Of a stretch of DNA of 64,000 nt, positions 657 through 35,000 are shown in pieces. Position numbers and translations under genes: made by a program. The first letter of the stretch is position 1; each line of letters begins with the position of its first letter. Location: the NCBI GenBank assembly GCA_036172245.1, contig JAYWIR010000003.1:372001-436000 (forward strand), written 5' to 3'. Source of the stretch: Raillietiella orientalis. Its lineage: Eukaryota. A model generated the notes under the pieces. That model saw nothing but the letters and a program-made list of their open reading frames with translations, was not told the DNA's origin and made no database searches.

Positions 657-1485
657 TGAAAACCGACAAGCAGATAATTTTGTCTTCCATTAGGTTCCGC
701 CAAGGAAAGCTAAAGTTGTTGTGGTCCATGGACCAACGAATTTGGATGAAAGCTTTTAAGTTGTCTATAAATGTATGTTTCCCTCCCCCCCAAAAAAAGA
801 GAGAGAGAGAGAGTGAGAACTGAAATTCCCTTACGAAGACCAAATTTCATAGATTATTTTTTTGACAATTCCTCTATATCTTGAATTGAACGATGATTCT
901 GTGGACTTTTAAGCTGCAGTTATCCCAAATAACAACTCTGAATGAACATCAAAAGTTGATGTTGCACACTTTTGCATCGAAGAACACTTATCGAAACACT
1001 CATCGGAAACTTTGTATTCACCATAGAAAGCATCTAGATGTAAAAATCGGCAAACTTTCTTAAAGTCTGTTGAATGTTTCTAGTGTCATTTGAATTTTAT
1101 GACTAATCACAGATTTTCCAGAGCTCATACCACATCTACTTCGAATACTTTAGAGTTTTTTTGAGTTTCTTTATTTCCTGTCATCCTGTTCTCACCAATG
1201 AAGAACTGATTCAAAATAAATCAAAAATCTTCAACTGAGAAACACTTATATGAAGGATTCCTCCATATTTATTGTGGCTTCTACTTAGGTTGTGTGATGG
1301 CATGTAACTGAAAGTCTATTCTAAAGGTATTCTCTACAAAAAGGTAAAATAAAAATCATAATATGCTTTCTAAAATGGACTTAATTCCCAATTATTGTGA
1401 AATTAATATATTTCATATATCGAACAGAATATTAATAGAGATTCCTATACTTGAAAGACGTGCTATTTGTTGTTTAAATGACAAA

Positions 1486-3749
1486 ATGACAATTGTGGAT
1501 GAACTGCATCGAACAGTTGGAGGTAAGGACTCTGTTCAAGGTTTATTGTAAACAAGCGACTAGAAATAATACATAACCAGAAATAGCACGTTGTCATGGA
1601 GGGTTTTTCGGAGGTATCATCATCAAAACTGCAATTGCATGTAGAATATTGAAGAAAAAAAAAGGGAGGGGGATGACAATGTCAATTCTATACCTAACAG
1701 AAAAATTGAGTGAATTGAGCTTGTGCAGCTACCCCATCAAAACGTTTGCTCACTATAAGTGTCCACAAAATTGAAAACAAAAAACGCTGGCATAGCACGT
1801 GACTCAACATAACCTGTGTTTTTGCTGCAAAAGAATTTGCAGGAGAAACACGAAACGCTGCTGAATGACATCATAAGGCAGCACATCTCATTTGTAAGCA
1901 ATTCTTTACAGCAAATATGGAGAAAATCTGTTCCGTGACGCAGCGACAGCGTGGATTGTGTTAGTGATTTCGTGGATATGATCCCATATTGAGAAGTGAG
2001 AACAAGATATCAGAACAGTGAGGAAAGGAACTAGAGGAGTTTAGTCATCGAAAGGCTCGTGGTATGAACCACTGAGACGAAATATGCGACGGAGGTTCGG
2101 GAAGATCTCGATCATCCTTTGAGAAAAGAGAAGAAGCAGAGTATGCTACCAGTTCCCAAAGATCACTTCAACTCTTTCTAGGTTGCTGTGCTTGACAAAC
2201 CAGGATATGCAAAAACAAGTGCAGGAGACCTCGCAGACTGCCAAGTGGATGCTATGGATGAAGGCCGTACACTCTTTAGGTACACGAGTTTTGCATTTGC
2301 AGAGCATGCTTAGTGAAATCGTATGCTGTTTCCATTAGTGGTTGATTTCTGTGTGAAATGAATACCGTTTCAGTTGCTTTCCACAGATCGACGAAGCTCG
2401 GAGTCTATGAAGATAATAGCTGGGTTCCAAATGGCTTCCTAAGAAATCTTAGGATCGTTTTTCCTTGAAGAGAATGTAATGGCAGAATCGAGACATTTGT
2501 GTTTTTCTCATGGTTACATATAAACCTACAACCAATTACATAGCACAGCATATATATTTTGGCTGGATCCCTATTTGAGTGGGTCAAGAATTTTTATAGA
2601 GTAATCATGTTATTATGTTTTGAAATGTAACGTAAAACAAGTGCATCTTATTTCAAATTTTCTATTAGATACAGCCCGATTCCGAACAACGAGATGAAAG
2701 CATCTATCCACAGAACACTTCGATAACGCACAAAACCCGCCCACCGTGCAGCAGATTCAATCTGAAACGAATCTCTTCCGGTTTGTTTAGGATAAGGATG
2801 AATGTCATCAATCGCAACTGATAAAAACTTCACCACCAATAACAAGAACCGATTTACTGCTTCTGCAGTATTGGATTCCTTGTATGCAAAAGAACAGTTA
2901 GCAAGAATTTTACCATTTCCTGAAACCTGTAAAATGTGCCTTGAGCTTTTTGACCAGTGCGCTGGTCGGTCGAGCCATCTACATGCATTAAGAGCATCGC
3001 TCTTAGCACACTTTCTGGATAGAGTTTCAGGTGCATATCGGTTTCCTAGCCGAAAGGCAGCTCTTCGTCGCTGTGGTCACCCAAGACCACTTTTGCTGAT
3101 CAAGTGTACATGGATCTAAGCTCAATGGGTTTTGCTTCGATGTTTGGAGAGAATCACCTCTCAGCCCAATCGGCAGTATGGGAAAAGACGATGAAGGACA
3201 GGAGTAAGCATTTCTTTTATAACATACTTGAACACCCGCCTTACACTTATAATGTCCACACTAATGTCTAACTTTCTTAGGATGAAACACAAGAAACAAA
3301 CTTCAAAATATAGGTTGTATGGAGAGTTGTACATTGGATAATGTCAAAAAAAAAAAAAAAAAAAACTCCATAAGCACGAAAAGCAAGGTGAAGGATTCTT
3401 TCATTTGACGTGTAGATAGAAAGATGAATTAAAACAAAATAAGAGATGCACAAGCTTGTACCCAGACTCCGATCCAGTTTTTTGCTTCGATTGTTGATGA
3501 TTGCCAAAGAAATCTGTTTTCTGACTAGAAGCTGAATCTTTCAAGTGTAAACCTCGAGCCTTTCTTGAGTATGGGAGAGAGCTCGCTGCTACTCCGTCTC
3601 ACTATTCTAGAGAAACAGCAGTAGCAAGCTCTTCCATTCTGGAAAATTCCAAAGACTCTTTACAGAATGTGTAAGATGAAACGTCGTATTGAGGGATTAC
3701 TTCAAAGTCGGAATTTACCGTCGCAAAACTCTCATGGAAGCTCCCTTGG
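1486..3749 (+). pseudogene. Possible spliced gene or pseudogene of unknown product
   Basis: Several exon-like blocks bounded by polypyrimidine-AG and GTAAG/GTAC sites (e.g. 2182-2279, ~3050-3205, 3529-3749). Some joins are in phase, but there are in-frame stops and no recognisable homology. Confidence 0.2.
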
Positions 3750-3955
3750 TAAGAGAAAGAACGTGACTCTACGTGATAATTCTCACGGAATGAGTCTTTG
3801 CTTTTCCAATCACAGTGGAATCTGCAAATCTCATACATCCCAACTGAAACACCGACCGTTTCCTGCTGTGTGAGGCATTTGTAACACTGAGATCATGACT
3901 TCTTATGAAATTTTTTCCTCATGTACTCCACAGCATATAAGGCTCGGAATGACTG

Positions 3956-3980
3956 ATATATATATATATATATATATATA
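3956..3980. repeat. (AT)n microsatellite
   Basis: Direct reading of the sequence. Confidence 0.95.
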
Positions 3981-5269
3981 AAAAGGGAGAAGTCAAGGAC
4001 TTCGATGCGAGACGGTTTATCCAGTGGGAAGAGGAGGGTGGAGGCATGCAGTCCCGCATGAAGATCCAAATGACCCAAAGAGGCAAATTGGTGTGATGAG
4101 AACTCTCATGGCAACCATATACGAAGCTGGGAGATCATGAAGTTTAAATGGATTATTGGCCTGAAAAGGAGGAGTGACTCTTAATTTACTTGCAATTGAC
4201 CGGAGGATGGCGGATGCAAAGTTGAGGCATCGCTCCCGCAGAACACGGATGGTTTGAAAATTATGAGAACCACAAATAATAGAACAACAGAAATCAACAC
4301 TGATGACATTTTATTAACTTCATCACATAAGGAATACGAACTCATAATTAAGACAAAACAAGAAAGCGGATTATTAGAGTTTAAAACTTCAGCTGTCAAT
4401 CACAAAAAAACAATGACAGACTGCGCTCGACATTCCAACAAATAATGGCAAACAAATTTCCTGGAAACATCACAAAAATTTCGTGAGGAGCCAGATGCAC
4501 TCCACAGTCGTCGATGTCTAAACTGAAAAGCACTCACGACAACTGGACTGATTTCGAAATACTCTTCCTCATCCAGTCGTTTCACATGGACAGAAAACAC
4601 GCTTGCCGCTGGTTATGTGATTCCTTTTAATTTTACTTCCTAAAGCATAGATTTCATCTGCAAGGAAATCACACCATTCAAATAAAGCAACTTGAAAAGA
4701 AAAACAAACATACAAACAAACATGAAACACGTAAGGAGGGTGTAACACAACATTGCAAGACGTGGAAACCGGATACCCCGAGTCCCTCCTGCGATGCATT
4801 CGAAAAGCCTACGTTAGCTGTCAGTGGCAGGCCGCAGTACAAAATTTTTCTATCAAACTCATTCCGTACAGTCCAACGTGATAAGGCTATTTGTATACCC
4901 AATGCAAGGGGGTCAAGGGGAAGAAAATGACCGCGCTCAAAAATACAACATGTATAACAAAACCTCCATTAGGGAATGCCAACTACTTTCAAGCGTATGC
5001 GATACCTCGTCTTATAAGGAGACTTTTTGGGAGCTGAGATACCTTGGAAACGTGAAATAAAAACGACAATCCTGATGAGTTGCGTTCCACTTGATCAGTA
5101 CTTGAAGTGTAGTATATTAATTGTACAATTGAAATAAAAAAAACTAGGCTAAAGCTAATACATGATTTAGGTGGTAATTGCTCGTTAGTGGCAATAGGGG
5201 CGCGGCTGCAACTGAGTACAAGACTGTTTGTTTGCTTCTACTGAAGGACAACGCGTGTTCTTGCCGAGC

Positions 5270-13878
<8,609 letters not shown>

Positions 13879-14640
13879 TTTTCCCTTGTTGAGTATTCGT
13901 TTTCAGATGATTTACGGATGAAACAAAATACCTTCACAGGGACGAAACACTGTTCATTTATTCAAAGTTTTTGTATGCACACTTTGGGTGAGCACCAGAT
14001 CACCACACCTCCTCCTACACGTTCGAACACGCGCATTTCGAGAACTTTCGCTTCATTAACTGAAGCGCATCTTCTGTTTGCTGGAGTAGCTCAATGTTAT
14101 GACATTCTATTTTTGATCCATCTACAAGTCATGAGCTGTATCTGTTATTCGTAACGCAAAATTATTCAAGTGTTTATTTCATGTCTAAAAAATATGCTGA
14201 ATCATCCGCAGTGGCGCGAATTGGTGACTCTTGGGAATGAAGCTAAAAAGTTTGGAACGTACTGATTTCGCTGTTCTTGTACTAGTTTGACGCCTCCAAT
14301 GTGAAATTCTAATCCTGAATCCATATCATGGACCAAAATGCAACGTACTTTCAGAAAGCAGGATTGCAATTTTTCAGGTCTAGAAGAAGTACTTTAAGTA
14401 AACTGCACTGGATGTGCATAACAGAAGTTTATGATCATGCACACTTTATACATTTATTGATACTCATTTCATTAATAAGCATAGTGCTGCTTCAATTAAT
14501 AAACATGCCACACAGCAGTAATCTGGTAAATAGGAGTCGAGCATAAACTTGGAACAAAAATCTTATTTTAATTCCTTTGTCTTGCAAGGTGGTCAAATTA
14601 TCTGTAATCAACACAATAATTGATCAGTGTTGTATGACGT

Positions 14641-14646
14641 TTTATT
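14641..14646 (-). promoter_or_regulatory. Candidate polyadenylation signal (AATAAA) of snf
   Basis: TTTATT on the + strand, ~18 nt past the snf stop codon. Confidence 0.55.
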
Positions 14647-14663
14647 AAATCTTTGTAGAATGC

Positions 14664-15838
<1,175 letters not shown>

Positions 15839-17589
15839 TTTCCAAATATGGACTTTAATTGACGAAAAATATACTTCTTCTCGATTGTAAGACACTCAAA
15901 TCGATGGATCTCGGTTAGTATACAAATTGCATAAAGCAAATAAATACATTACACCGCTAACACTTGATTTTTCACAAAACATGAAGCCATTCAAAGCACA
16001 CATTGAAATCAGAATAGCCAACTGCAGGGATAAAGCAATTTCTCATGACTTTTAATAATTGATCGAATGTTTCAAGGAAGCATACAATACACTCCATATT
16101 CAATCAGATTAGATACATACTATCTAATTTTAGATCTAATTACGGAATCCAATGCCAAGATTTACATGTGTAATTAAACAAAACTAAAAACGTTTTTAAT
16201 CTAATGAAATTGCTATGGATAGTCAATTCACTGATTAAAACACTATTTCAGCTATAAATACAATCATATACGCGATTCCCATCTGTATTCATCTGTAAAT
16301 ATCAAAATTTCAATACCTTTGCAATATAAGCAATTCTCGTAAAATATAGAAAATTTCAGCAAACACTACAAAATAATTTACTGCTACCTATATCTAGAAT
16401 CAAATATCAATCAAATCAATCAAATATCTAAGTTTTTAATTGTTATTATCAACCTTGACAAGAGAAATAAAACAGATTTTCACACCAGAGATATGAAAAC
16501 TGATATTAAAGAGAGATAATTAAGAAATTCATTCTATATGATTCTTTAATTTGCACTATTGTTACTCAGTTGTAAACTGTATTGATTCAAAAAACAGATT
16601 GTTCAGGAATATTGAACTTACAATTATTTTTCAAGACTGTGCGCTCTTCATGAGATCAGTCACGCGGGCTAGATCTCTTCCATTCAGCAAAAAAAAATTT
16701 AAGTTAAGTGACTGAGGAATGCCTACCATTTTCTCTTCTTAAGATGGGAAAAACATGAAAGATTTCATTAAAGTAATGTAGTTGCATAAGGTGAAAAGTT
16801 AGAATTCTAAATTTATAGTTACTTGCTCTCTCCAAAGAGCACATATCTTAGATAATAAAGATCACCTATCCTATGCAGTGAACCAGAGGCATCTACTAGT
16901 GAGAATCAGCTCTCGAAGTTTCTTTTAAGCGATACATCAACAATCCAAAACTTTGCAAACAAGAAATCATATGCAGTAGTCATTCAGTTTTCGTGACAGT
17001 GAATTTTAGTTCAGCAAAGTTCCTTATTACATCAAAAAACATGATACGGAACTTGTACGATTTCAACATTATGAGATTTCAACATTCTTCTACATGCCTT
17101 CCATGTTCATACAGTTTGGATATTATGGATATGAAAATACAAAAATTACGAAACAATATGATTAGCTACTGATATGTCTTATTGCTTTACTCTTCTCATT
17201 TAAGCTTTGACAACAGTTCCGTTCTTCAGTACTCTTGAATCTAAGTTATTACCACAATAATTCCTTAATTCCTTAACTTTTAGATATACAAGCATACTAA
17301 ATTTAGTTGGTATCTCTTATCCTTAATGTAACGTTTTACAGTTATGTAAGTGGTATTTGAAAATTTTTGACGCATTGCAGGTATTATCGTAACTTGTGTT
17401 GCTCAGTGATAGACATCATTTGCTCCCCGTTATTTTATATATGCTGATTACAAAAAATCAAATATCGATTGCGGCATGAAGGCTATAACTTTTGTATATC
17501 TTGAAACTAAAGAGAATGAAGAGGAAAAAAATATATTTGCTTTATGAATCAGTAACCTCGACTATAAACAGAATTTTTGGTTAGGTCTT

Positions 17590-17916
17590 AAGAACTCTCA
17601 GTTCGAATTTGAGTCTGCCAGGAGGGTGTCATCCCAGTGTCCAGACACTGGGATCCAGCAAAACTGATCGTAAACAAGCGCACTATACAGCATTTTCAAT
17701 GAGACCACCAAAAACTGGATGCTAGTGTCAAGCACTGGCATGACACCATTGTTTGTATAAATTACCTTTACAAACAAATGTTCGTACAACTATGTGCTTG
17801 GCACTGGCATCCAGGGACAGAAGAGCATAGATCCAGTGGATGGCAGGGATTGATGTCATGAAAGTAGCTGATGCTGGAGTCCTGCTCAGTATAAGGTCAG
17901 CTACTTTCAGGCTCAG
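17590..17916. repeat. Cluster of Wolbachia palindromic element (WPE)-like repeats; candidate nuclear Wolbachia insertion
   Basis: Hairpin ATCCCAGTGTC-ca-GACACTGGGAT (17631-17654). Hairpin ATGCTAGTG-tcaag-CACTGGCAT (17719-17741). Half-unit gtgcttggcactggcatccag. Inverted pair TGAAAGTAGCTGA / TCAGCTACTTTCA (17859-17871 / 17897-17909). Translations VMPVLDTSIQ and WIPVSGHWDDT match recalled WPE peptide signatures. Confidence 0.8.
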
Positions 17917-18428
17917 GAGTGTCGAAATTACCGTGGAAATATTTCAATTTGAAGTTATCTGCTTTGGTTCATTGATTCTTTAGTAAGTTCATGTTTTGGA
18001 TACGTAAGCAGAAGATTCTAGATCTTCTAAAGGAATTTAAAAATAATTCTGAGATGATTTGCAGTGATCAAAAATTAGGACGAATCATGAAATACTCTAA
18101 TACACACAGAAGGAAACAGCGAAGGCATTCTGGACACTTTTTATTGAAGTGTTCGGTATAACATAGCAAAATGCCTGTTTTTTATAAATTAGTAAACATT
18201 GTCAATTCTCTTGGATGGACCTCTATGAGATAAAGCGCCAAGGAAGTCATCATTCGATTTCTAAGAAATGAGTTCCAATAAGGCCAGTAAGCCATAGGAG
18301 TTCGATCATGAAACTGTAGAGAAGGAAGGACTCTGCTGTCACCCTTTAACTCTTGAATTTCGTGCAATATCCCCCAGTATTGAAGACTTCAGAGCATACA
18401 TGAATACATTTGTTTGTTTGTTTGCTTT

Positions 18429-18462
18429 TCGCTTCTCGGCCTTTTGGTTAAGATCAAAGTGT
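18429..18462 (+). pseudogene. U2: 3'-truncated U2 snRNA fragment (first ~35 nt)
   Basis: TCGCTTCTCGGCCTTTTGGTTAAGATCAAAGTGT versus the metazoan U2 5' end ATCGCTTCTCGGCCTTTTGGCTAAGATCAA(A)GTGTAGTA. Similarity stops inside the branch-point recognition region; no Sm site or 3' stem-loops follow. Confidence 0.85.
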
Positions 18463-18915
18463 TACCAGATACATTTGCTTGAGCAATTTATGAACACACA
18501 TTTTCCAGAATGCATTTTAACATACTTTATAAATCGAGAGGAATCAAGTATTCCCTGATATCTACATTTTGGCACGTGTGAGATCAAAAAGGAAGTACTT
18601 ATCTTCAGCATTCCTTAATTCTATCAATTATTCTTATTATTTGTTTATTTACTGTCTAAAATATGTCTAAAATAAGCTCAGTATGTGTCTGGCATATAAC
18701 TAATTGAATTCACTGTTGTGCAAATATGTTTTTTTGAAAAAAAAAAAACTTTCAGTTTCAGCATCCTGTACAGTGTTTTTTAAATTCAATTCATGACGAG
18801 AGATTGTGTTCCATAATTTAAGATAGGAAGCGTTGTGAGATTGCTCCAGTAAATTGCATTTCGGTATTCTCCGGTTTGTATCAGGAAATACGATTCCAGA
18901 AAGCATTTTAAACTA

Positions 18916-18940
18916 AGAGAGAGAGAGAGAGAGAGAGAGA
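18916..18940. repeat. (GA)n microsatellite
   Basis: Direct reading of the sequence. Confidence 0.95.
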
Positions 18941-19699
18941 AAAAAACACTTATTTCGATGAAAATCTTGTGGAATAATGTGCTTTAGTGTTAGAAGAAGA
19001 AGAAAAGGGCTATACTTCTTTAAGAGAATAATCCTTTACAAAAGAACAGTTCTCCTCCAGTCAACTGGCTTTTTATTCGGAAAGGAAAAGATCGCATTTG
19101 AAGAATTGTTCAATAGCATTCCTAAACACTGAATTCATGTTGCGTCTTGTGTTGCTGAGGATGGATTTTTGTAGAAATGATATTCTGCAACACTGCTGTG
19201 AGCGAATGGACTCAACACAAGTTTTGAACGAATCCGAAAAACAGAGTGGATGTCGACGGCATCAACGGAAGCTGCTATGGCAGCAAAAGAAAGCAGTAAA
19301 GCCGTGTGATTGCTGTTGGTGAAACATTTGCTCTCTAGACGTGAAATGCTACTCGAGGTCGTGACGTTTCCAGATGGCACCGCATTTCTTTCAGCTTTTG
19401 TGAGCTGCTTCCGAAATGCAGAAAACTGTGTGCATCCTAGCAAATCAAAAAAAAAAAAAAAAAAAATGCAGAAAGCCACGAACAGTTTAAGCAAACTGCA
19501 ACCGAATGCGACCAAAATTTATCGGAAAAGTAAATAAAATGCGTGAGAACCGAAGAGTTTTTTTTTCTTTTTATCAACTCCAATGTACGGCAAGAGTAGG
19601 AACCAAAGATTTACTTCGTGATCGAAAACCGAGGAACTCCAGCTGGACGAATGGGGAGCACCAACTTCATTATGCATTCCCTCTAGGAAAGTTCAAGTT

Positions 19700-22600
19700 G
19701 AAATTCTACTCCGAGATAACTCGAAGTAAACGTTACTTCTCTGTAACACGAGAATCGTCTCTTCGAGTGCAGTTTAACGAGATTCCGGTTTCCTGTGAAC
19801 AGCCAAGTGACGAAAGCTTTCCTCTGTATTTCTTCACATCAAAACGAGTGGGTTCGAATGCCTCGCTGGTCTTTCCACGGAGCATGTCAGAGCATTTGCT
19901 TGTGCAAGGAGGCGCTTCAGGTCTGGTAGGCCATTTTCAACTGGGTAATTTATTTGGGAAAGGATCCTCCATGAGGTTGAAGGTTGTCAAGGCTACTTGC
20001 AGTCATGACGAACTTGCTGGAAATCGTGTCCAGGGAGCAACCGAGGGAGTATCCTCCATTCTGGAAACTTTTCCATCTGTAGATCACCGAAAGGCAGGCT
20101 TGACGATCGCACCAATGGATTTTACACGCCTCAAATTCAATTTTGGCTCTCCTTCAATTCACTGAGAGGAAAACCGAACTATTCTGCTTAACTGTATGCC
20201 ATTTTATTTTTATTTTTCCTCTGGATTCCTGAATATCATCGATACGTTTGAAATATTAGACTCTCACAGGAATTTATCTGAAGACATTAAGATTTCATAG
20301 CTTTTCCAATGTATTTTGTCCCTCATTTACTCTTTTCAGGATAATGTGAATGAGAAATGCCAATCTTTGTAGTAGTTGGTCTGTCCATCAATCCCTTTCC
20401 ATTGCCGTTACAAGTCGAGGAGCGAAATTGCATTTCGGCAAGCAATATTTTCATGAAGAGTGCACTTCTTGTTGAAGCAATCGATGCATTCTTCATTTTG
20501 AGGTGCACACTCAGACATACGGCTTTGGATCCTCTGGTATAAATCTCCTATTTCTTAGAGAATGTTTGAAAAATAAATATAACAAATTCCTTCTCCCTAC
20601 GATTGCATGATAATACATTCGCCCCAAGAGAATACATAAAGCTAAGAGGAGGAGCCCCATGGAGCTTCGAGAACATCAGAAACAACCTTTCGCTTGTAAC
20701 AGATCAAAGAAGGTCTCGAAACAAAGTTCCGGGAAAAGGAGGGGAGAGTTTGGGATTATGTGGTGGAACAGTTGAAAGTGGTATCTAGTTTATCAGAACG
20801 ACAAAACGAGCATTCACTTTCAAATGTACGTTTTCACAACCGTACGATTCCATCAGTAGGTCGAATTTCGCTTTCTCTCGATGGCGAAGAGCACCCGAAA
20901 TCTGCAGGCAGGCAGAGCTCGGTTAAACCCTCACTTTCTATATCACGAATTCAGGACAAGCAAAGTTCGCCGTGCAGATGTGGTCAGGGCAATCCATGCT
21001 CCAAGTTCAATGCATTTCAGCCAAGTTCTAAGTAAAGAGGTGGTCAGGTTCCGACAGGAGACCCACTGCTCGGTGCTGAAGGCCCCGTTACTTCTAGCTT
21101 GTCCAATCACAAACCACTGCTTTCGGGGCTTCGTCTTAGGTACTCCTGCCTGGAGCGCCTCAAGGGGACCAGTGAGGTTGTTTGATCGTAATGGGAGTGA
21201 TTCCGCCAATTTGAATCTTTGAAGAAGCTTTGAAATCAACCGTTTCTAAGGGTTTTTTTTCCGATCCGGTCGTTCCTTTTACATGCGCGCCTGCGACCTT
21301 CGATTCCGCATGCCCCAACTGCGGGTCAAACGCTGTGACGTAACAGTGTGTTGAGGTAACACGCCATCGTGGCGCACAATACAGCGTCCTACCGAGCTGC
21401 CCATTCGCTGTTCACGATTGACGTTAGCGGGTGTGGGTGTGGGAAAGATCTCTGCAGTTTCAACGAATGGCGCTTTATCGCCTTGCTGAGTGTGGCCGCG
21501 GGGCTCCTCTCAAAACTAGGGACAACGCGATTAGGACAGGCGGTTTAGTCTAGGATGCTCCCGAAACAACCCATGGCAGTTCCAGGGGTGAGCACGAACT
21601 CCAGATTCGTGAGGTCCCTGTTTAAGCTTCAACAGCCAGGCGCGTCCGGGAAAGTGCCACTTCGTCGAAGCGAGGGAATGCTCACACAAAAGGGAGAGCA
21701 GGGCGTCTTGGAGGCCTTTTCCGATTCCAAAAAGGTTTTTGACTGTATCAGCAAGAAATTTCTGTTCGATCTCCTCGAGAGCTTTGGTTTCCTGTTTAAT
21801 TTATTAGGCTGCATGCCCTCGACATGGCACAACGCGTATAGTAACAGCCCTTTCAATGGTCTTAACGTGAACGGTTATTCTGGTCATGAGAAGAGTGAGG
21901 ATCCTTCTAGGAATCAAGAAGCCGGTTCTCTTAGGGGTTTTCCTCCGCTTGAGAAAATGGAGCCGTCCCCTTTCCTCGGGGAGAGACTTTCCATCGCATA
22001 CCATCGAGTTGGTTGATACTCCCCTCCGGGTTGCCTCTCCAGAATGTCAAGAAATTTGGAAGCGTACCTTCGGGGTTCTATTCAGAAGAGGAAACAGGGA
22101 ATGGTTCCCTTGCGGAGGAGAAATTCAGGATCGTATCCTTTCCGGGACCCTTCAGAGAAGAAATGAGGAGTGGCCACAACCGGGGCGTCCCTCCGGAGAG
22201 AATAAGGAAGAGACTCCCTTCGGGCTTCCTCACCGAGAGTACGAGGAAAGGAATTCTTTCTCCAGAGTCTTTCTGGATTCATAGGCTGGTCTCTCGTAGG
22301 GTTACATTCATAGGGGGCCTAACTTGACGAGTTACACGTACCTTTGGGTGTCATGGGCAGTGTTAAAGAGCTTTGTGAGACTCCCTTAAGGGGAGAACGG
22401 TTTTTCAGTACATAGTGAACCCCCCCAAAAAAAGTGAGGCAAGGAAACAAGTTCTTTACCATGCTCTTCAACATCTATTTTGAATTAGTGCTGTGGGCTT
22501 ATAGGGCAATGTTGCCATCCCTTCCTTCTACCGGCACATGCACGCCATCGGTGGCTGCGCGAGCAGGTGATCGGCTCCCATTACCCCGGTCCACTCCCAA

Positions 22601-24000
22601 GGCCAAACTCGAAAAATTCTCCGAATTAATCCTCAGAAAAGCGGGCATGCGGATGACTGGATAGAAATCAGTGATCATCACTGTCGTTTCGGCGCGGGTG
22701 AAACAACCAGAATGCGCTCATAGTGGAATTCACTCGGTAAAATACCTTCAAGAAGTACTTCAAGCACCTCGAAGCCATGGAGAAAGAATTTCTGGCATTT
22801 AAAGCATGATATGGTTGCCTCTAAAAATTCAAAGTCAGCAAGGCTCTGACTCCGTTCTGAAATCTTCCTCCTTCACATGGAATACGCCTGTCTCCTCTCT
22901 TCGTTCACCCACTCCCTTTGCTGCCTCCTCTCTCCCTACTGAAGCGAGACGGAAAGTTGCTTCGGAAAACCCTATAGGACACCGAAAAATCTCAGGTCCG
23001 CCTCGAGGACTACACCTCCTCCCTCCTTAACTCCGGTCTTGGCATCCTCACAGTGCAGAAGATGGGAGTTTCGGCTCCTCTTCCAAAAGACAAAAGTTCG
23101 TGTCCAAGCACTGGGACGACCGCTAGCGTCGCCCGGCCCAGAACGTAATTCGTGGCCTGGTAAGTCACGGACCTGCGTCTCTTGGACCCAACGGTCACCG
23201 CGGTGTTCGTTCCTTGAGTTTCCTTCTGAGCGGATGTCTCCATTACTGAGAGGGAATCATCGGGTCCTTCCGGTCCGCCAACTGTAGTGGTTGCAGCGAG
23301 AAGATATGTATTCTTGGTCCCACATCAGAGATGTCGGGCTAGGCCAGTGGCATTTCCTAGCTCACCTAGGGAAAATCACCGTAGTAGAAATAATGCGGGA
23401 TGCCCGGAAGTGGTGTCGCGTCTGCTGTCATTTCTTAGCCCACATGCCATGTGCCTTGCTCAGAAGAGAGGGCAGTACGCAGTCAGCAAAATGAGAGATC
23501 GTCTACTGTGCCACAAACAGATCAGCTTCCCTTCGGAAGCGGACGACGGGTCAGTTAGTGAAGGAAGCTGCTCCGCCCACACAAGCAAGAGGCCTCCGTC
23601 GTGGGGCTGAATCCTTTGGAATCGACCCAGAGGTCTTAGCGGCCCCTCCTATGTGCAAAAAGATTCGTCACCTTCTCTGAGACTGCAGAAGAATGTAGCG
23701 CTGCTTCTGCGCAGAGGGTTGTAGTGCAATCGTCTCTCACACATTGCCTCCGGAGGGAGATGTCTACCCACTGGGCATGGTGTGGCCTGGAGTTCAAGCT
23801 GTGCTGCAGGGATGTCCATGTATGGTTACGGCTCTTTTCCTTCCCAATGACGGACTCAAAGGTATTCTCGAGGGCTTCTTCCTTGTCCACAGCCTTTCGT
23901 TTCTCCCACGGCGACAATCTCACTAGTGTGCTTCCTCCGTGGGATTGTAATGCCAAGGCCGCAACCTCTGTTTCTCGGGATGGGAACGAGAAGCCATCAA
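19700..24000 (+). mobile_element. Degenerate L1/Tx1-clade ORF2 (APE endonuclease - RT - CCHC region)
   Basis: Motifs in the expected order: SVDH (endonuclease SDH, ~20080), DLCSFNEWRFIALL (NWRPISLL, ~21450), SDSKKVFDCISKKFLFDLLESFGF (~21720), VRQGNKFFTMLFNIYFE (~22434), KYL, and C-terminal LQKNVALLLRRGL*CN. Many stops and frameshifts; boundaries approximate. Confidence 0.8.
21890..22400 (+). mobile_element. Fragment of a related element nested in the RT domain
   Basis: Separates NVNGYSG from VRQG. Nucleotide similarity to 55490-55750 (gagaaaatggagccgtcccc / gtgaaaatggagccctacccc; gagttggttgatactcccc / gagctggttgacacttcccc). Confidence 0.6.
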
Positions 24001-25699
24001 ACATGCACATTCTCTACTTAAGAGGAGCTGAGAGATTTCCCCGAATGGATGCGCAGGTGAAAACAGGAAATCGCTTTAATAGCATAGCGAACCGATCGAC
24101 AACCGCATTCTTTAGACAAACTTTGTTTTTCTTTTTTGTTACCCACCAGACTTTGCCTTGCAGAGTGCTCAGGCGCGCTCAAGTCCTTTCCTCTGGGCGA
24201 CCATTGGAATCGTGTTGTTGTGTGCTTACTTCCGTAATAAATGCCCTGGCACAACAGGGTCAAGAAAAGCTCAATGCTCAGTTTCCTATAAGATTATGAG
24301 GCAACCTCTCGGAATTGGAAACTCAGTTTAGTGTTTTCTATAACAGACAAAAGGAGCGGATTTCAGGCGCCTTAATGTCAGCTTGATTTTGGTAGACGCA
24401 TGCGGCCGGATCGAATGCAAACGAGAGGTCCAGTGGTACGGCTTTCCGGTATTAATCAAAAACTGGATCTACATCGATCTGTATCAGCTATCGTTGCCAT
24501 TTAATATGAAAGAAAGATCTCGGAAAATGTAAGGAAAACTTACACCGTAAAGACTAAAAAGAATTTCAGAGTCATCAGTACAAAAAAAAACAAATGTATG
24601 AATAGTTCTTCCATCGTTCTTCCTCTAAGTCAGTTTCCCACTCGCAAGCGAGTGACCTCAGCTTCCAGCAGGACGAGTCCAGGTTTGTGCAAACCGATTT
24701 TTGCTCGTTTCGGAGTAATGTGGAGGAGACATCGACGAAATCTGAAGCTGATACACTTTTTTTTTTTTTTTTCCGAAGCAATTTTTTTTTTTTTTTTTGA
24801 AAACGCAGTGCCATTTTATTTACACATTTGTTTTCATTTTTGCCCCTCCATTGTGCGTCAGCCACGAGACTTTTTCCCTTCGAAAATACATGCAAGGAGC
24901 AGATTTGTTTTTCCCAGTGAACAATGATGCTGTTCGATGGTCCACGTTCATCGATTCCGCTTCAGCGTGGCTCATGGAAAAAAACTGGAAAGGACGAAAA
25001 ACAGAAGATGAGAAGTGTGAGCAGCGGAGCGTTCGAATTTAACGGGCAAACCTCGTGAGGAGAAAATCTTTTCGAAGGTTTTGCCTTTTACGAAAGTTCT
25101 CGAACCCTTCAGACAAGAAGCGCTTGCTTGATGCCGGGACTGCCCTTCATACCTTTCCAGCAAACTTTCTCCCACCTTTCCCTCCATTACTACTGCAGCA
25201 AAACGCCGATCCACGTGTTTGTTTGCTGCTGCATTTTTGTGGATGAACTAGAAAATCATCGAGGAAAAGAGGAGACACCCACACACAAGTCATCGGATAA
25301 CTTCCGCACGCTTCGAATGAGGTGATTTTCATAGCAACGGCTGTACCAGAGGGGGTATGCATGTGCAGGGAGAATTGTCCTGTGCTCTTCTCACACGGTC
25401 GCAACATACGGGAAACAACCCTTTGTCCAGTTGCATTGCTTGAATCCATCCCATCCATCCACTTCCAGGCATCTTCATGACTCCGTTCTCTGTACTTGTA
25501 GATGGGTCCACCTCGGTTTCCCGCTTACAACAGATTCAGGGGAATTCTTGATGTAGAGGGGCGGGCAAGGGAGGATGGCGGAAGGTTTAGTTCGAAATCC
25601 CGAACTCCGAAATCCTGAACGATCATAAAAATAAATACATATGCATATTATATATATTAATATATAGGCTGTCCTCTCCTGTAAGGCTGTCCAGGTAGA

Positions 25700-26340
25700 G
25701 GGGAGACGTCTTCGACGGCGGAATGTCCAGTTATTCCGCCCAACGGAGCAGTCCCTTAGCGCGGACATTGGCAGGTCTTCCACCGGCTCACCTCTTTCGT
25801 CGCCCCTACTCCTGAGGTTTAGAATTGTCGTTTCTCTCCCGTAGGAGGATAGCGCTGGGGCTGGAAGGGTGGAAGTGGAGCAAGTCCACTTCTCCCGGTT
25901 GTTCCCTTTCCGATTCCTCCAGAGAGACTGCTCCCAAGTTGTGGAAGGGACGTTTCGTCACTGCATCACTGAACTTGGTTCGGATCCAGGTTCCCTCTGG
26001 AATCCATGGTCCATTGGATGTCTGACCCGGTGCGGTGAGGTGCAATACTTTCCGCATTTCTTAGTGGACTGTGCTGCCCCGTGGGAAGGCACACGTGGGA
26101 ATGTTTCGCAGCGGTCCTGTCCTTCCCGGTGGGCCACTCCAGAGGCATTTGGGAGAACCTCTTCGTGAGGAGGCTCTTCCACGCCGTAGCGACCGCGGCT
26201 CTCTGAGGGATGCTGGCGGCGCGGGAAAAGGACGAACGACGGGGGCCCCAGCCACTTCATGACCTGCTGATGAGGATCGCGGCCGAGGTGTACTTGCCTG
26301 GGAAGAAGTAAAGTGGAAGTTTCAGAGGATGCAGATGGTG
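25700..26340 (-). mobile_element. Possible further retroelement remnant
   Basis: GC-rich island in AT-rich DNA with fragmentary translation (AWKSLL...GPWIP) reminiscent of the post-RT region. No diagnostic motif. Confidence 0.25.
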
Positions 26341-27318
26341 TCATGGAACAGGCGTTGTTCTCTTCCCGAACTGCACGACCGAAAAATACATTTATTTATT
26401 TATTTTTGCCAAAATGCTATCGCGATAGGTATTATTTGATCCTTTGCTACTTAACCTTTTGTCACTAACCGTATTCGTAATTTTTTTGTCCTTCTTTATC
26501 GCTAAGCAAAGCATTTTCTTCCTTTGTCAATTCTTTAATTAAATCATCATCATTAAAGGATAGCTGAAACCCTGATTTGCTGTTTCCAGAGTCTATACAA
26601 GAGTTCCAACACCATTTCACATGCCATTTTCCCGGTCCTGTGTGAGCGAAGCACATACCACCAGCATGATCAGCTGTTACTCTATTGATATCTTCTTCAG
26701 AAACTTTTTGTGGGGATCGCAGTAAAATATTCTCCGCACGACAGACATTTATACTAAGAATTAATGGAATGAAACATTTCTGCGGAAGATTACGCATCAT
26801 CTATTCTATAACCTCACTTTCATCATAAACAGTAAAAAAACACTAAAAAAATGAGTGAACCCTGCCAATTAGGGGTTTTTGCAAAATTTTGAAAAGCCAC
26901 GTTTGCATCAAAACTTAGTTTGCTATGATCTGACTATTTTCTTGCATGAAAGCAGGAAAAAAGGCAAAAGAAACCCCCAGTCAATGTCTCTTTCAAGAAC
27001 TTGGCGTTAATGCCCTATACGTTCGAAAAGTAGCTGACCTTAGGATTGTAAATACCCATAATCTCATGATAAGGGAAATGTCGAAAATTGTCAAGCAATT
27101 TTTTACGAAGATGATTGGTTAAATTGGTTAAATTTTTAACTAATTAAAAAAAGACAAACAAAACCGCAACGTGAGTTGTTTACTGTTCTCTCAAAAACTC
27201 GGCGGTCGGTTCTCTCTTACACCGTTTAATAAGCGAGGCTCAGCTAATGTAGACAAAAATTCATAAAGACGAGTGGTGTCCATGCTGCAAAAATGAAACA
27301 TAACATATAGGCTGTGCT

Positions 27319-27354
27319 CAGTATACAACTAGGCGTGTGCCTAGTTGTATACTG
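27319..27354. repeat. Perfect 16-bp inverted repeat (hairpin)
   Basis: CAGTATACAACTAGGC-gtgt-GCCTAGTTGTATACTG. Confidence 0.9.
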
Positions 27355-27599
27355 TGCTTTTGTCACTGAATACACTTCTGGCGCCTGTTCATCTGGCGCT
27401 TCTGGCCTTGTAACATCTCAGTTTGATTGCGGGGAACAGACAGGGAACAGGACAGGGAACAGGACAGACAGACTTCAGCGCCACACCACTTGCGAACGAA
27501 GTCTGAGGGAAGCTCCGGACAGCATTACGCATACTGACTAGATTGATACTGACTAGGATGCTGGATCGTTTCGTCCGTGCTCCCGACGGTGGCTTCGCC

Positions 27600-30500
27600 G
27601 ACCGACCGGCCGACATTCCGGCGTTCTCCTGCAGACTCTTGGGATTCGTGGAGCCTTACCACCACTCCTGTGTGTTCATCGTTTTGTATCAATGAAAACT
27701 CCCGGCGTCGTCGGGTGGAGACAGGAAGGCTTCCCTGCGTTATCCCCCTCCGGAAAGGCCCGCCCGAGGATGGTGCCGAGGATACCTACCACTCTGAGAA
27801 GAGATGTAGGAAATCTTTGAAACCATCCCAGTCTGTCTTGCGCGAAATGCTGCGGTCCGCTGGCAAGGTTCGGAGTTCCAATTTCCCCTCCCCCTCCTCC
27901 GGTATACTCCGGAACCGCGTCTGGAAGGGCGACATGCAGAGAGTGGGGCCCCGAGTCGGATCCTAGGGCATTCTGGGCCGCACTCATCCCCGCCCAAGAA
28001 CACGCGCTCTGCGAAGACCCCGGGCTCGAGGCGCGCGTCTCTGCACAGATCCCGTTGGCCTATGGGAGGAAGCTCAGGAGCCGTGCCTCATCCGCAGGCA
28101 CGCGGGAGCTCACTATCATCAGGCGAACGGCCTCCGAGTACGCGGGCGAAGCCGGCCCTACACTGGGAAGGAGGGCTCCCCTGCAGAGGATGCCGGAAGA
28201 CATGCTCCACCCCCATTCCTGCATGCGGTGAGTGGGAAGGGGGGAGTCACACCCTCCAGCCGCCTGGAGGGTGGGAATCGGCTGCCCTCTTCCTTGCATA
28301 GGCTCGCGGGGGAGAAGCGGGGAATTGGGAGATATTGTACTTTAACCGAGCGGGGTGACCTGCCCATCTGTCCCGAGAGGAGAAAGGGAGGGAGAGGAAA
28401 GTGAACGTCGGAAAGGGTCCTCAAGATCTCCCCAGGCAGATGCCCAGGCGAAGCTGAGGTGGCGAACCACCAGCTCGGCCTGCACCTGGCAAGGTGGGAG
28501 CAGTGGCCTCCCTGTTTCAGCGGTGGCTAGTAGACGGGAGCTCTGCTTCACGTCCGGAACCTCCGCACAGACCCGCAGCCCCCTCTTCCCCCCTTTTCTC
28601 TTCGCAGGCGTTCGAGCGTTTGCGCACGCCGGGACGTTGACCATTCCTCCTCATCATCTCCCCCCTCCCGCCCCCACTGGTGGGCGAGGTGGGTGGGGGA
28701 GGGGCACCTGCTCCTTCCTTCTCTTGCCGGTCCCTCGCAGGCGTCGTGGCAAGCGCGAGGGTCGGTGGACCGCTGCCGCGGCTAGAGAGGGAGCAGCGGA
28801 ACCTGCGAGGTGTGGAACGACTACGGGGAGCTGCGGGGCGGAGTACATCCGCGGTGCTCCATTCCCGCCGGGAGCTTCCGGACGAGATACGAGTAGCCCA
28901 GCAGAGTCTTCCTCGTATTTTTCCCGCCTCTCGCCGTGGTCCGCTGGCGCAGGCGAGAGGGGAGGCGCCACAGAGGACGAGAAATCGCCTCGCCCCAGCG
29001 GGCTGGCGAGGAGATTTCGCTTGGCTTTCCTTTCTCCTGACGCATTGATCGGGTGCCCGTGAGGACAGGGGCGAATGCGGTTGGTCCCTTCGGGGGAGGA
29101 GTTCCTGGAGGAAACTTTCCGGAGAGAATGGAGGAGGGACTCCCTCTCCCGGTGTGGCCCCTTCTCCTTTCCCCTCAGACCACCAGGGAGGGGTCCCAGG
29201 TGACGTCTGGCGGACAGCGCGCCCGTCGTCACACGCACTCTGGGCACCCCACCTCTCCCCCCCCCCCCCCAACGTGCCCCTTTCTTTGACTCTCCTTTCC
29301 TTTTTTGTTGTTGTTGCTTCTTCTTCCCTTGCGTGTTTCCCTTGGAGACGGCGGACACTCCGGCGCAAGCGGGTGTCTCAGAGGCGCTTCTTCGCGTCAC
29401 CGAACGGTTCTGCGCCCGGCGCGGTCTCTTGCTGCCGCGTTTGCTTGACCACTCCTACCGGGACACGCGTGGGGAAGGAGGGAGGGAGGGGATGCTCTTG
29501 CATCCCCGCCTGTTCGGGCCACGCGAGTGCGACGCAGGGAGGGTCGAGTTCTCCAGAGGAAGGACGAGTGTACGAGACGTGGAGCCGGACGAGATGCAAG
29601 TCACCGCGCTCCTCGTCCAGCTCGGCACTGCTCAGTGACCTGCGCCATAATTCCCCTTTGAACGTGCGGCACAGACCCTCCTCCGGATGAGGGGGAAAGG
29701 GGAAGGGGAAGCGCGTCCCGTCGATTCTCCCGACCTCCGATGTATCAGGCTGGAAACGGAGGGAGGAGGCGCGTGTTTGGCCTCAGAGCGCCCTCCTCCG
29801 CAGCAGGACGGGATGATCTCGGGACGCGCCGAGGGGAAGGCCCAGGGCAGACCGGAAGCTTTGGTCTAGGGGAGCAGATGCGAGAGCGAGGATTCGAGAG
29901 AGGTGAAAACCTCGCGATGCGGCTCCGAAAAACAAATGACGTCACCGCTGGTGATGGACCGACCAACCTCGGACCTTCTTCGCAGTCGCTTGAGGCGAGC
30001 CCGGAAGGAACGGATGCGGAAGGAAGAGAGGGGGAGAGAGGGAGGGAGGGTGATGTGGATGCTGCTGACAGGAGATCCTCTGTGTAGAAATGCGAAGAAC
30101 GGTATCTCTCGGCTCGACACTTTCTCCGGGAACGCTCGCTATAGCTGCGGAGGGGTTTCCAGGCAGCGCGGCGCTTGGCGGGGGGGGGGGGGGGAGGCGC
30201 TGGCGGAACCGCAGTAAATATCCGGAAGAAGCGGAGAAGACGTGATCTTAACAACTCCAGGATCAGCCTGTGGCCTCCTGAGGGCCCTCGGGTTTCTGAG
30301 AGGCCGCAAGCATTGCGTCTCTGCCGACGGGGCGTCGAATCTCTGCGCGTCTGCTGGGGAGAGCTACCGTCACAGGGGAAGAAAAGAAGAGGGAGCGGGC
30401 GGGGGAGGAAGAAAAACGAGGCCTCTCCCGCTCGAGATCGACTCGACTCGGCGTCACGAGAGAGCTGGTATGTTCCATCACCGCCGGCAACCCCCGTCTG

Positions 30501-31000
30501 TCACCTTTCCCCCTCCTCCCCCGTCAGATGTTCCGTCGTCACCGACTGCTTCGAGTGAGGCTCGCCGCTACCATGACTCTGAACTTCTGGATTCTTGGAA
30601 AACGGCGCGCGTCAGAGCGCTGCCTTCGCCTCGTCTGCGCCGCCGGCGGGGAGAGGAAAAGAGGAGACACGGACAGCCCCGAGATGAAACTGAAAGGAAG
30701 GCTCCGCTGCCACCCGCGTAGCCCTCTGGAAACGAAAGCTCAGAGAGGGGCGTAGCAACGGGAGTCCCTCTCGAGGGGTGCTCGCAGCAGGACGTGCGCG
30801 GTAGATTCCTCCCGAGCTGAAGAGTGTGCGCTCCGGGAGCCACCGACCCGGTTGGCAGCAGAGCCGTAGGCGTAGCTCCTGCCTCCTCCAAGGACCTGAT
30901 TCCCGGGACCCTTACTGCTGGTTGTCAGGCGTTCCTTCTCCTCCTCCTCTTCCCTTCCGTTCCCGTCTTCCTCCGGAGGCACCGGCGCGCGTAGGGTGCT
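27600..31000 (-). mobile_element. Highly eroded, GC-rich L1/Tx1-like ORF2 relic
   Basis: Ordered remnants on the - strand: PWRRQELR (~30890, NWRPISL), GVVKITSSPLLPDIY (~30250, GVRQG.PLSPLL), FYTEDLL (~30069-30089, YADD position), and a C-terminal ECP..DSGPH..SAC knuckle with GTPNL (~27900-27980). Confidence 0.55.
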
Positions 31001-32045
31001 GGCTTTGCGGAAGACGCGCAGTTGCTCTCCCCCCCCGTAGGAACTGGGTCACGCGCGGCGGACTTTCGGAGATCTGGACAGGAAATCGAATCGAGGGAGT
31101 TTGACTACTGTCCAGAGGAAATCCGGAAATTTCCATCGGGAAGGGGGGGAGGTTTCCGCATGGCGAGTGGTCTCCGCAGAAGACGGCGGACGGCCTCCCC
31201 CCTTCCATCCCTGGGAGATCGCGGTCGCTTCGTCTCTGCCGCGTTGCCACCGGGCCGTTCCGCCCGGTGTCTCCCGAGTGGCGTTCCCTCGTCGGCGAAT
31301 TCGCCGTTCTGGGTGGTGTTCGGCAGGGAGGAGGAACGCCCTGAAGACTCGCCCTCGTTTTCATCTCGACGGAGCCCGCCCTAGCGAACCCTTTCGGGGG
31401 AGGAGGAGGGTGGATCGCTCTTTCCCCTTCCTGCCTTCAGGGGAAAAAAGAGTGGAAGGGTGGTAGGTAGGGAGGAACGCGAAGCCTTTCCCTCGCAGCG
31501 CCGGAGCACGAGGAGCGGGATCGTCCCGAACAGGGAATGGGTCCTACGGGAAGAGCGGCGCGGGGACTGAGTTCGGAAAAGTTCGCGCCACTTTTCTCCT
31601 CCTCGACCCCGCCCGGCCGTGGATACTCCCGCACTTTCCAGAGGGTCGAAAGAGAAAGGAGCCTCCCGAGCAGCGGGAAAGAAGCAGCGGCGCATGTGGT
31701 GGTTGGTAAAAGACAAGAAAGAAAAAAAGAAGCAAAAGGAAGGGATAATGGACCTTGATGACCTTCCGGCTCTGGAGAGGAGAGTGGGGCCCGCGGGTCT
31801 CTCGGAGAAGGTCGGCATGACTTCCACTCTCTCAGCGCTTCCCGCTTCCTCTCAGAGACCTGCCCCACATTCGAGGAGTGAGGGGGGAGCAGGGCAAGAG
31901 GACAAAAGGGGAACGCGGCCGGGTGTACGCGACTCTTAGCGGATCCGCGCCTAGAACGAACGGTGGCGGCAGTGGCAGCAGCAGCAGCGACAGCGCGGAT
32001 GAGTCGTGCGGCGACGGCGGAGGCGCCTCGCGGCTGGTGACAGAC

Positions 32046-35000
32046 ATGGCGGGTCTGCCCAAGTTCCTCTACCTGATGACTCTCGGCTACTCCTTCTACT
32101 TCAACCTGAAGAACGACCTCATCGGCGACATCGACAACCCGAACGGATTCAGCAACCTCTTCGTGCCCGACGTAGAGAAACCCTTCGATTTCATTGTGGG
32201 TGAGTTTCCTTTTTCCCTCCCCCCTTCCGCCTCCTCCTTCATCCGGGCGTGCGTGTGGGAAAAGAAGTCTGGAAGTGCACGTGCGCAAAGTCCGGCAGCG
32301 GGTCCCATATCCCAGTGCCAGTGGCGCGTCCCGCCCCGCAAGAACAGGGGAAAGCCTTCCCCGGCCGGGAATGATTGACCTCCGTTCCGAGATCCGCGGG
32401 TGGGCTCCCCTGGCACCGGGGAGCTCGCAGGCGGCGCGAGAGTGCTGCTACCTACCGGAAAGCTGTGGATTGGCGAGACCCGACCGCAGCGGCAGCAGAC
32501 TCCACGGAGCTCTTCCCTGCTGGTTTCCACCCTCCCACCCCCCCCACTAACGCGACGTGTGCGCTCCCGCTAAAGTTCATAGCGTCGGCGAGCATCTGTG
32601 GTGTGCATCATCCCATCCTCTCCCCTCCCCTTTCCCCCGTCTTTTTCCCTTTTTTGTTTCGTTTTACTGGTCCGCCGCGTGGCACGCTAACCGCGCGGTA
32701 GGGTCGTTTCGTGACTCCGAGGGCCCAGAGCCGCCTCACGATCCCGGGACGGACTGGCGTGAGGGATGTAGTCTCGTGGGGAGGTGGGCAGGGGGGATCT
32801 CCCCCCCCCACCTCCTCCGGCGATCACGTCTCCTCGTCCTGTCCGGCTGACCTCCACTTATTCGGCAGCGTCCACTTGTGAGAGTCCGCATCGTGACAGG
32901 CCAGGAGGAGACGTCGTAGCCGTCGCCGAAGAGTCGAAGAGGGAAGGATCCCCGTCACTCATGGAGGTCACAGGCTACCCCACAGGCCGTTCGGAGTGTG
33001 GCGCGGCTGGCTTCAGGAACGGGCAGCCACCACGTTGGGTGTCAGCAGCCTCCTGCGGCGGGCGCTTTTCCCCTCTGCTCTGAACAGGGGCGCGTAGGCG
33101 TTGGCATACCGGGGGCGTACCCCACTCGGGAATGAGCGCGCGCAAGCAAAGGCTCTGGGACGAGTCCCTGCCGGCGACGTTCTCGCGGGCGTCCCTGGAG
33201 GCAGATCCCTTTCAGGGACCGCGCCGCCGCCGCGTCAGACTCTTGGGCGTTCCCTCCTCCGGCCGCCTCTGTGGACGTGGTATTCGAGTGCCACGTCCAC
33301 GAAGGAATCTCCCGGAGAACGCTCCTAGAGGTGGAATTGTCTCTGGTGAGGAAGAAGCTTCGGGTCCCCCGACCGCCTTCCGGAGCCACTGTGTTGCAAA
33401 AAGGGATGAAACGGGATGCCGGCAGGAGGCGGAAGAGTATCATTTCGTGAGGGAAGTCCTCGAAGCTCTTCTTCCGCTAAGAGCTTAAGAGGGAAACCAC
33501 CTCCAGTCACTAACAGAAATCACAGGCGACCCTACAGGCTGTTTGGGGTGCGGCGCGGCTGACTCGAGGAACGCTCCCAAGCCGAAGTCTCCGCGGGATG
33601 GAACGAACCGCGGCAGCGGTGGGACTCGTCCAGGTTGCTCTTCTGGTTCGTTTTTTGCTGGCCTCCCTCGCTCGGGTGCACCATGGAGAAGGAGCGGCAG
33701 TTTCCGCAGCCTCCTCTTGCTAGCGCGCGAGTGCGGATCTGGGGGCGAGTCGATCTCCGGGGTGGGCAGACGCGCGCACTCCGAGTGGGTGAAACGACAC
33801 TGAGAGTGAAAGCGGAGCCGGTCGCTAGGCAGCGCTCCTTGCAGCCTGAGCTTCCCCGCGATAGCATCTCCCGTTCGAGAGCGAGCAGCGAACCCTGAAT
33901 AACTGTTCCCAGAATTCGAGTTGGGGGCGGGTGACCCACATCCCTGTTGCGGCTGGAAGGCGGAGACGCGCTGAACGCCAAGCCTGCCGCTGGTCACCGT
34001 GGGGATCCGACCCCGGTCGCGGGAAGAGCGGCGGCCCCCCGAACGCGGTTGTGCCACGCGGGGTGAGATCCCCCCGGATGCACCCACCTCTTGCCTTCAA
34101 GGGTGCCGGCAACCCAGGGGTGTTCCCCCGCCGAAGCCGCGCCGGAAGGTTCTGGATCGAAGATCACCACACGGCGATCTTCGATCACCTGCCGGCAGAT
34201 GTCAGTCCCAGTGTGGATCCCAGGAAGGGAAGGAACGAAGCAGAACTGAAATTTTGATTTTCGGACCTGGCATCTCGACGCTGCAGAGGAGGGAGGAAGG
34301 AGTGGTCGGTCTCATCCCATGCCGAAGACGGATCCCCCTTCTCCCCTTCGCATGCTCCCCCCTTACTCCCTGCCTCCGCTGGGAGAGGTTGAACTTCCCT
34401 CAAGGAGGAAGGGGAGTGTCACAGCTGCTTCTACAGGATGGGTTCCCTTTTCTTCCTTCTCTCCCTCCCCTCCTGCTGCCTCTCGGTACCAAAAGTGGGA
34501 GGGAATGGGGGTGAAGCTCTCTGGTGCCTCCAAGGATTCTTATTGGCCGTCGTTGAGGACGGATGCCGAGGAGAGTGGTGGGGAGGGTTGGAGGAAACGC
34601 AGATGCTCCTGAGCTCGTCCGGGGGCTTCCTCTCAGCACAGGGGTGGTAAGTCGCGGCAAGGGTGCGCAGGTTCCCCCCTCATTGTCCCCCTCTTCCTCT
34701 CTTTCCTTTTGTCCTGCCGGTTTTCCTGGTTCGGGGAAAGGAGTTGACCGGGATCAGTTTGCCCCATTGGATGCGGTGACACAGGACGCGAGGATGAGGC
34801 CCCAAGGAGGGGAAAGTTTCGAGCCAGGGCTGCCGTTGAAGAGCTGGGAGGCGGAAGCCGGGCCGTAGCCGTGGGAAGGGCAATTCTTGGTGCCGCGGAG
34901 CCTCCCGTTCGGAAGGGTGAAGCAAAACCACGCGGCTCGTCGCCGGCCAGCTGCGAGTCATCCCACGAGCGCGTCCTCAGTTGCGCAGCAACGGCTGCTC

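Follow-up and report, generated by a model that had tools for sequence, protein, structure and literature searches.

How does a cluster of short palindromic repeats that looks bacterial come to lie among the genes of an arthropod chromosome? The question is raised by the present window (the whole stretch of DNA analysed, 64,000 nt), in which a preliminary description placed four palindromic units at 17590-17916, assigned them to the WPE repeats of Wolbachia and proposed that non-coding repeat DNA of an endosymbiont sits in the host chromosome upstream of the snf gene. That proposal is upheld by the Wolbachia homology of the cluster, by the animal genes on its flanks and by a second Wolbachia-like fragment on the same contig. 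The reading favoured here, with a probability of about 0.85, is that the two fragments are nuclear Wolbachia transfers (nuwts), as judged at the level of the assembly.

The palindromic cluster, referred to here as fragment 1, is delimited by Wolbachia alignments to 17606-17910 on the forward strand (~305 nt). All four palindromic units are present, and the first two form an inverted pair as described. The extent first given holds for the location of the cluster, and the Wolbachia-like part is slightly narrower, running from 17606 to ~17910. The inverted pair (17608-17761, +) is a WPE pair and coincides with the Rfam WsnRNA46 element; it consists of two inverted 33-nt hairpin units with a 56-nt spacer between them. 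Hairpin 1 lies at 17625-17658, with inner arms of 11 nt that match at 100% (17631-17641 and 17644-17654), and its inverted partner lies at 17715-17748. The outer arms of the pair, GGTGTCATCCCAGTG and CACTGGCATGACACC, are 93% complementary over 15 nt (17625-17639 and 17733-17747). Half of a third hairpin unit is found at 17794-17814 (+), where it forms an inverted repeat with 17715-17735 (21 nt, 90%) and marks the joint of two repeat types. It also starts an 85-nt match to two Wolbachia genomes, G054 and G059, and 17794-17878 is 92-94% identical to the copies in these two and in G053. The second repeat type, defined by its inverted repeat and by alignment to three Wolbachia copies, is a GTCATGAAAGTAGCTGA... 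hairpin at 17851-17910 (+) with a perfect 13-nt stem (17859-17871 and 17897-17909). This hairpin extends to ~17908 and has the same stem as the three Wolbachia copies, with a loop that is 21 nt shorter. Folded as RNA, 17606-17916 reaches -117.9 kcal/mol (z = -5.95), a stability that none of 100 shuffled sequences equals. The cluster of palindromic units far exceeds chance, given an Rfam E-value of 4.7e-17 in the 64-kb window and a BLASTN E-value of 4e-84 to a Wolbachia genome.

Fragment 1 is of Wolbachia type by four independent tests. An Rfam scan of the whole 64-kb window returned a single match above its gathering score, that of RF02625 (WsnRNA46) at 17608-17761 (+), with 83.6 bits (gathering score 65.3) and model positions 1-151 of 151. 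Scored on this model, five Wolbachia copies give 81.4-101.6 bits. The score of fragment 1 thus falls within the range of living copies, so that little decay is visible from this fragment alone. The second test, the protein profile TIGR02697 (WPE_wolbac; cut-off 27.55 bits), gives 33.4 bits on the open reading frame at 17613-17699 (+), which covers profile positions 1-21 of 36; positions 23-36 are matched in another frame, at 17674-17757. The positive controls, three Wolbachia copies, reach 31.4-32.2 bits with the same split-frame behaviour, and the initial WPE assignment is thereby confirmed.

WPE, whose original description is reportedly that of Ogata and colleagues (2005), are defined as elements translated in frame within a protein. 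The present element shares the hairpin sequence of Wolbachia copies of the same subfamily and, like them, passes the TIGR02697 cut-off. Unlike protein-coding WPE, however, it has a frame-split profile, and stops break every frame across 17600-17915, so that it is not read in frame as protein. The Wolbachia copies are frame-split too, and the subfamily is therefore related to the protein-coding WPE but is itself non-coding.

The third and fourth tests address the distribution of the sequence. A two-arm hairpin pattern of 31 nt, searched in one genome per species across 185,579 prokaryote species, occurs at no fewer than 130 loci, and all 130 of the matches listed belong to Wolbachia, uncultured Wolbachia or Rickettsiales MAG records. 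A BLASTN comparison with Wolbachia had been put forward as a check; at the DNA level, 17300-18200 has counterparts in 48 of the 60 Wolbachia genomes compared, with many matches per genome. The best match to fragment 1 is 93% identical over 205 nt without gaps (G038:C59:12-216), and another locus (G015:C1:1115602-1115792) is 93% identical over 191 nt, also ungapped. These alignments include unique, non-palindromic spacers, which argues for homology and not for convergence of the motif.

RF02625 and TIGR02697 recognize one and the same element, in the window as well as at Wolbachia loci L141-L145. Since the two models coincide, and since 48 of 60 genomes carry matches, the WsnRNA46 'sRNA gene' family is a dispersed palindromic repeat.

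On its left side, the Wolbachia-like sequence ends abruptly. No Wolbachia match was found at 17300-17605 among 60 genomes or at 9000-17605 among ten, and the AT-rich stretch at 17160-17590, which had been suggested to belong to the insert, is accordingly left outside it. A GTACGAACATTGC block (14-20 nt), adjacent on the upstream side in seven of seven aligned Wolbachia copies, is missing left of 17606. A 28-mer across this left junction has no match in metagenome contigs.

The second Wolbachia fragment, which the preliminary description had missed, lies at 26424-27374 (~950 nt). With genomes G001-G005 alone, only short repeat matches near 26.9-27.2 kb were seen, and the fragment emerged with the genus-wide search. 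Most of it (26424-27305) is colinear with a single-copy locus of genome G015 (L153), at 87% over 883 nt or ~92-93% when gaps are ignored. One end (26424-26800, minus strand; colinear with L153 2001-2385) is a pseudogene, the 5′ fragment of a SIR2-family gene that retains ~128 of 348 codons; the corresponding open reading frame of L153 (2001-3047, 348 codons) matches Pfam SIR2. In the window, 111 codons remain in frame (MMRNLPQK...) and are followed by an 8-nt deletion and stops. The intergenic spacer upstream of this gene follows at 26801-26949 (minus strand) within the same 87% alignment. The remainder (26950-27374, no strand assigned) is ~390 nt of a multi-copy Wolbachia repeat of ~475 nt, with dozens of 82-86% matches in G015, G033, G038, G039, G041, G046 and G006.

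This ~475-nt repeat is non-coding and reaches dozens of copies in some Wolbachia genomes (the seven just named, G012 and G030), and it is absent or fragmentary in G001-G005. Rfam holds no match for it, and the Rfam scan gave nothing meaningful on fragment 2.

Homology of fragment 2 stops inside the SIR2-family gene at one end. At the other, the boundary of the repeat can be placed by aligning the Wolbachia copies to each other (L153 1376/1383-1856), and the window stops at L153 1464, ~85 nt short of the end of the repeat. Because one end falls within a gene and the other ~85 nt within a repeat, both are arbitrary break points and not the termini of an element. Close to the latter end, 33 nt (27306-27338) are the reverse complement of the adjacent 27339-27360, forming a 42-nt palindrome that no Wolbachia copy has and that shows as a self-match of the window at 27316-27357. 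A further 36 nt of the repeat (27339-27374) lie beyond this window-specific inverted duplication, which resembles the mark left by fold-back repair or template switching.

Between the two fragments lie 8.5 kb of DNA that is not of Wolbachia type. A single continuous insert of 9.7 kb (17.6-27.4 kb) is ruled out, as 17920-26420 shows no real match to 60 Wolbachia genomes. Three matches of 25-46 nt in two of the 60 genomes are all that this interval yields; two of them fall on a T-rich low-complexity run at 24.76-24.80 kb, and the third is an exact 25-nt match at 19442-19466. Pfam matches are likewise absent from the open reading frames of the 8.5-kb interval. A host transposon was considered as the cause of the separation and set aside, with no LTR or TIR pair found at 15.7-29 kb. 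In the rest of 9000-28999, no Wolbachia match was obtained with ten genomes, and 1-9200 and 29000-64000 gave none with the five closest genomes. The donor loci of the two fragments are ~82 kb apart in G015 and ~118 kb apart in G033.

The DNA around the fragments is that of an animal. To the left, a multi-exon host vinculin gene occupies 5273-13878 on the minus strand, as identified by Pfam and by the exons recovered with tblastn. Nine minus-strand open reading frames (5273-9350) match Pfam Vinculin in profile order, and a cockroach vinculin used as tblastn query aligns as ordered exons from 13878 down to 5273. The gene is compact, with introns of roughly 50-350 nt and a long first intron. The host gene for the SNF/U1A/U2B'' protein lies next to the cluster (14700-15841, minus strand). 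Its exon at 15350-15760 (-) matches the Drosophila SNF and human U1A structures with an E-value of 3.8e-30, the ATG of exon 1 is at ~15841 on the minus strand and the RRM2 exons are near 14937 and 14774. Fragment 1 thus stands ~1.77 kb upstream of the SNF start codon, in agreement with the distance of ~1.8 kb estimated at the outset. To the right of both fragments, pieces of a GMC-oxidoreductase are recognized by Pfam at 36802-38360 (+). Exons of an MgtE/SLC41-type divalent cation transporter are seen at 49145-49618 and 52285-52743 (+), in an AT-rich block between GC-rich blocks.

A U2 snRNA-like sequence was noticed at 18428-18603 (+), 0.5 kb from fragment 1 and ~2.6 kb upstream of the U1A/U2B'' protein gene. 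Its match to RF00004 is weak (31.4 bits against a gathering score of 46; E = 0.0011), with the first ~35 nt corresponding almost perfectly to the 5′ end of U2 and the remainder poorly. This may be a U2 pseudogene or a variant.

The vinculin gene also gives some indication of the host. Its largest exon is at most 54-59% identical to database proteins, and among the best 120 of 1318 matches to the exon all are arthropod wherever an organism is given. In a tree of 18 rows taken from the top matches, the host forms a very long branch of its own (0.78) and clusters with none of the arthropod groups sampled; no member of its lineage seems to be included in the protein collection.

The base composition of the window is uneven. 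Blocks of 55-70% G+C within 28000-46000 and 53000-64000 abut blocks of 30-45% G+C, and the GC-rich blocks contain long open frames in all six frames. The possibility that these blocks are bacterial DNA was considered and rejected: among 121 long open reading frames right of 28.3 kb, the only Pfam matches within GC-rich blocks are the GMC-oxidoreductase pieces, and the blocks have no matches in the five closest Wolbachia genomes.

Has the sequence evolved as bacterial or as nuclear DNA? A tree was built from the unique 527 nt of fragment 2 and six orthologous Wolbachia loci. The window copy is placed within the clade of G039 and G033 with support of 96/95, and its terminal branch (0.054) compares with 0.003 and 0.02 for the sister genomes. 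Identity of this 527-nt part to G039 is 93.4% when gaps are ignored. Window-specific changes, defined as columns in which four living Wolbachia agree and the window differs, are distributed over codon positions 1/2/3 as 7/6/3 (16 substitutions only). Columns that vary among the four living Wolbachia are distributed as 11/8/28, a difference that is significant in this small sample (Fisher two-sided p = 0.008). Structural marks of decay accompany the substitutions: the 8-nt frameshifting deletion and the 33-nt inverted duplication in fragment 2, and the 21-nt loop deletion in fragment 1. Living Wolbachia carry pseudogenes as well, and the frameshift by itself is not decisive. Taken with the frameshift, the inverted duplication and the truncated gene, the lack of a third-position excess indicates that fragment 2 has evolved without coding constraint, as non-coding nuclear DNA.

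These observations converge on nuclear transfer. Homology to Wolbachia is high (93% over 205 nt and 87% over 883 nt, with clade support of 96/95), host DNA is found on both sides along the contig (vinculin and SNF on the left; GMC-oxidoreductase and the MgtE-like gene on the right), and the sequence has changed without bacterial constraint (truncation, 8-nt frameshift, and 7/6/3 against 11/8/28, albeit in a small sample). Fragment 2, a truncated and frameshifted piece of a single-copy locus 8.5 kb away, strengthens the transfer reading of fragment 1. By sequence comparison, both fragments are assigned to the same Wolbachia clade, with G039, G033, G015, G038 and G043 as the nearest genomes. This shared best-matching clade and the similar divergence of the two fragments fit a single infection or transfer episode, from which both may well stem.

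A plausible course of events begins with Wolbachia DNA released from lysed bacteria, which would enter germ-line nuclei. Fragments of this DNA would then be ligated into chromosome breaks, most likely by end-joining repair. The source of fragment 1 was probably a repeat-rich intergenic region, which supplied the WPE/WsnRNA46 pair, the half unit and the second hairpin type. That of fragment 2 was probably a single-copy locus that contributed the 5′ third of the SIR2-family gene, its upstream spacer and most of the multi-copy repeat. After insertion, both fragments would have been non-functional and would decay neutrally.

An assembly artefact, in which reads of a living Wolbachia were misjoined into a host contig and no insertion took place, is unlikely, even though repeat-rich Wolbachia DNA is the type of sequence that assemblers misjoin. 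Two separate short fragments (~305 and ~950 nt) are involved, each with non-Wolbachia DNA on both sides, within a 64-kb stretch that carries spliced animal genes. Their ends cut through a gene and through repeats. Moreover, the lost third-position bias, the frameshift and the inverted duplication specific to the window are unexpected for a living symbiont.

The dispersed, multi-copy nature of the repeats in Wolbachia, where the full element has terminal inverted sequences GTACGAACATTG ... CAAATGTTCGTAC, also invites a reading in which a WPE-type repeat behaved as a MITE-like element and moved into the host by transposition, or became a host repeat family. This is very unlikely. The left terminal block, present in seven of seven Wolbachia copies, is missing from the window copy, which is joined to a repeat of another type and has no second copy within the 64 kb. 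Fragment 2, by comparison, includes a piece of a non-mobile single-copy gene, so that passive transfer did occur at this locus.

It is scarcely credible that the WsnRNA46-like hairpin upstream of snf is retained by the host as a domesticated regulatory RNA, whose transcripts are cut into small RNAs directed at targets in the host or in Wolbachia: the hairpin is still intact (83.6 bits; fold z = -5.95) and WsnRNA-46 of living Wolbachia is mentioned to interact with the host dynein heavy-chain gene and bacterial murD (PMC12796755), but the copy in the window differs by ~7% from those closest to it, about as much as the clearly dead fragment 2 does, and at this age a retained structure needs no selection. 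In a specific and equally far-fetched form of this idea, the host would transcribe the WsnRNA46/WPE hairpin pair 1.8 kb upstream of snf, and the long hairpin would be diced into small RNAs that mimic the symbiont's regulator of host genes or target Wolbachia transcripts. If true, the captured hairpin pair would be a heritable memory of infection.

Nuclear transfer, the preferred reading, has close parallels. NUMTs and NUPTs arise when chromosome breaks take up random fragments of organelle genomes, which thereafter decay neutrally. Nuwts differ from these in their donor, which is a facultative or obligate bacterial symbiont and not an organelle. Like the nuwts of other arthropods and of nematodes, the present fragments are truncated, pseudogenised pieces of Wolbachia DNA in host intergenic space. 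Transfers from Wolbachia to host chromosomes are described for Brugia malayi (PMC3849323), and section 10 of the same article mentions an enrichment of nuwt junctions in intergenic regions. Wolbachia fossils are noted in Dictyocaulus viviparus, a nematode without the symbiont (PMC4046930). Drosophila ananassae is also mentioned as a carrier of nuwts (PMC4299567); unlike its inserts of near-genome size, the present fragments measure ~0.3 and ~0.95 kb. Two further features set them apart from other nuwts: fragment 1 consists purely of palindromic repeats, and the host belongs to a fast-evolving arthropod lineage.

The repeat itself can be compared with its relatives in the same manner. Annotated WPE copies are given as nine in each of two genomes in PMC4898810, and the hairpin motif found here is far commoner than that annotation would suggest. 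WsnRNA-46 is presented in PMC12796755 as a Wolbachia small RNA acting on the host dynein heavy chain and bacterial murD. The window copy resembles this family (RF02625) in its full-length match above the gathering score; unlike the copies in Wolbachia genomes, it lies in a host chromosome.

The nuwt process itself is well documented, and the present case is an ordinary, small new example of it. The fragments record a past or present Wolbachia of a particular clade in this arthropod lineage. The window copy has diverged by ~5% since its split from that clade, and, given a comparison of related host genomes, the insert could be used as a dated record of past symbiosis. It follows, too, that a WsnRNA46 or WPE match in an animal assembly does not necessarily denote contamination or a living symbiont.
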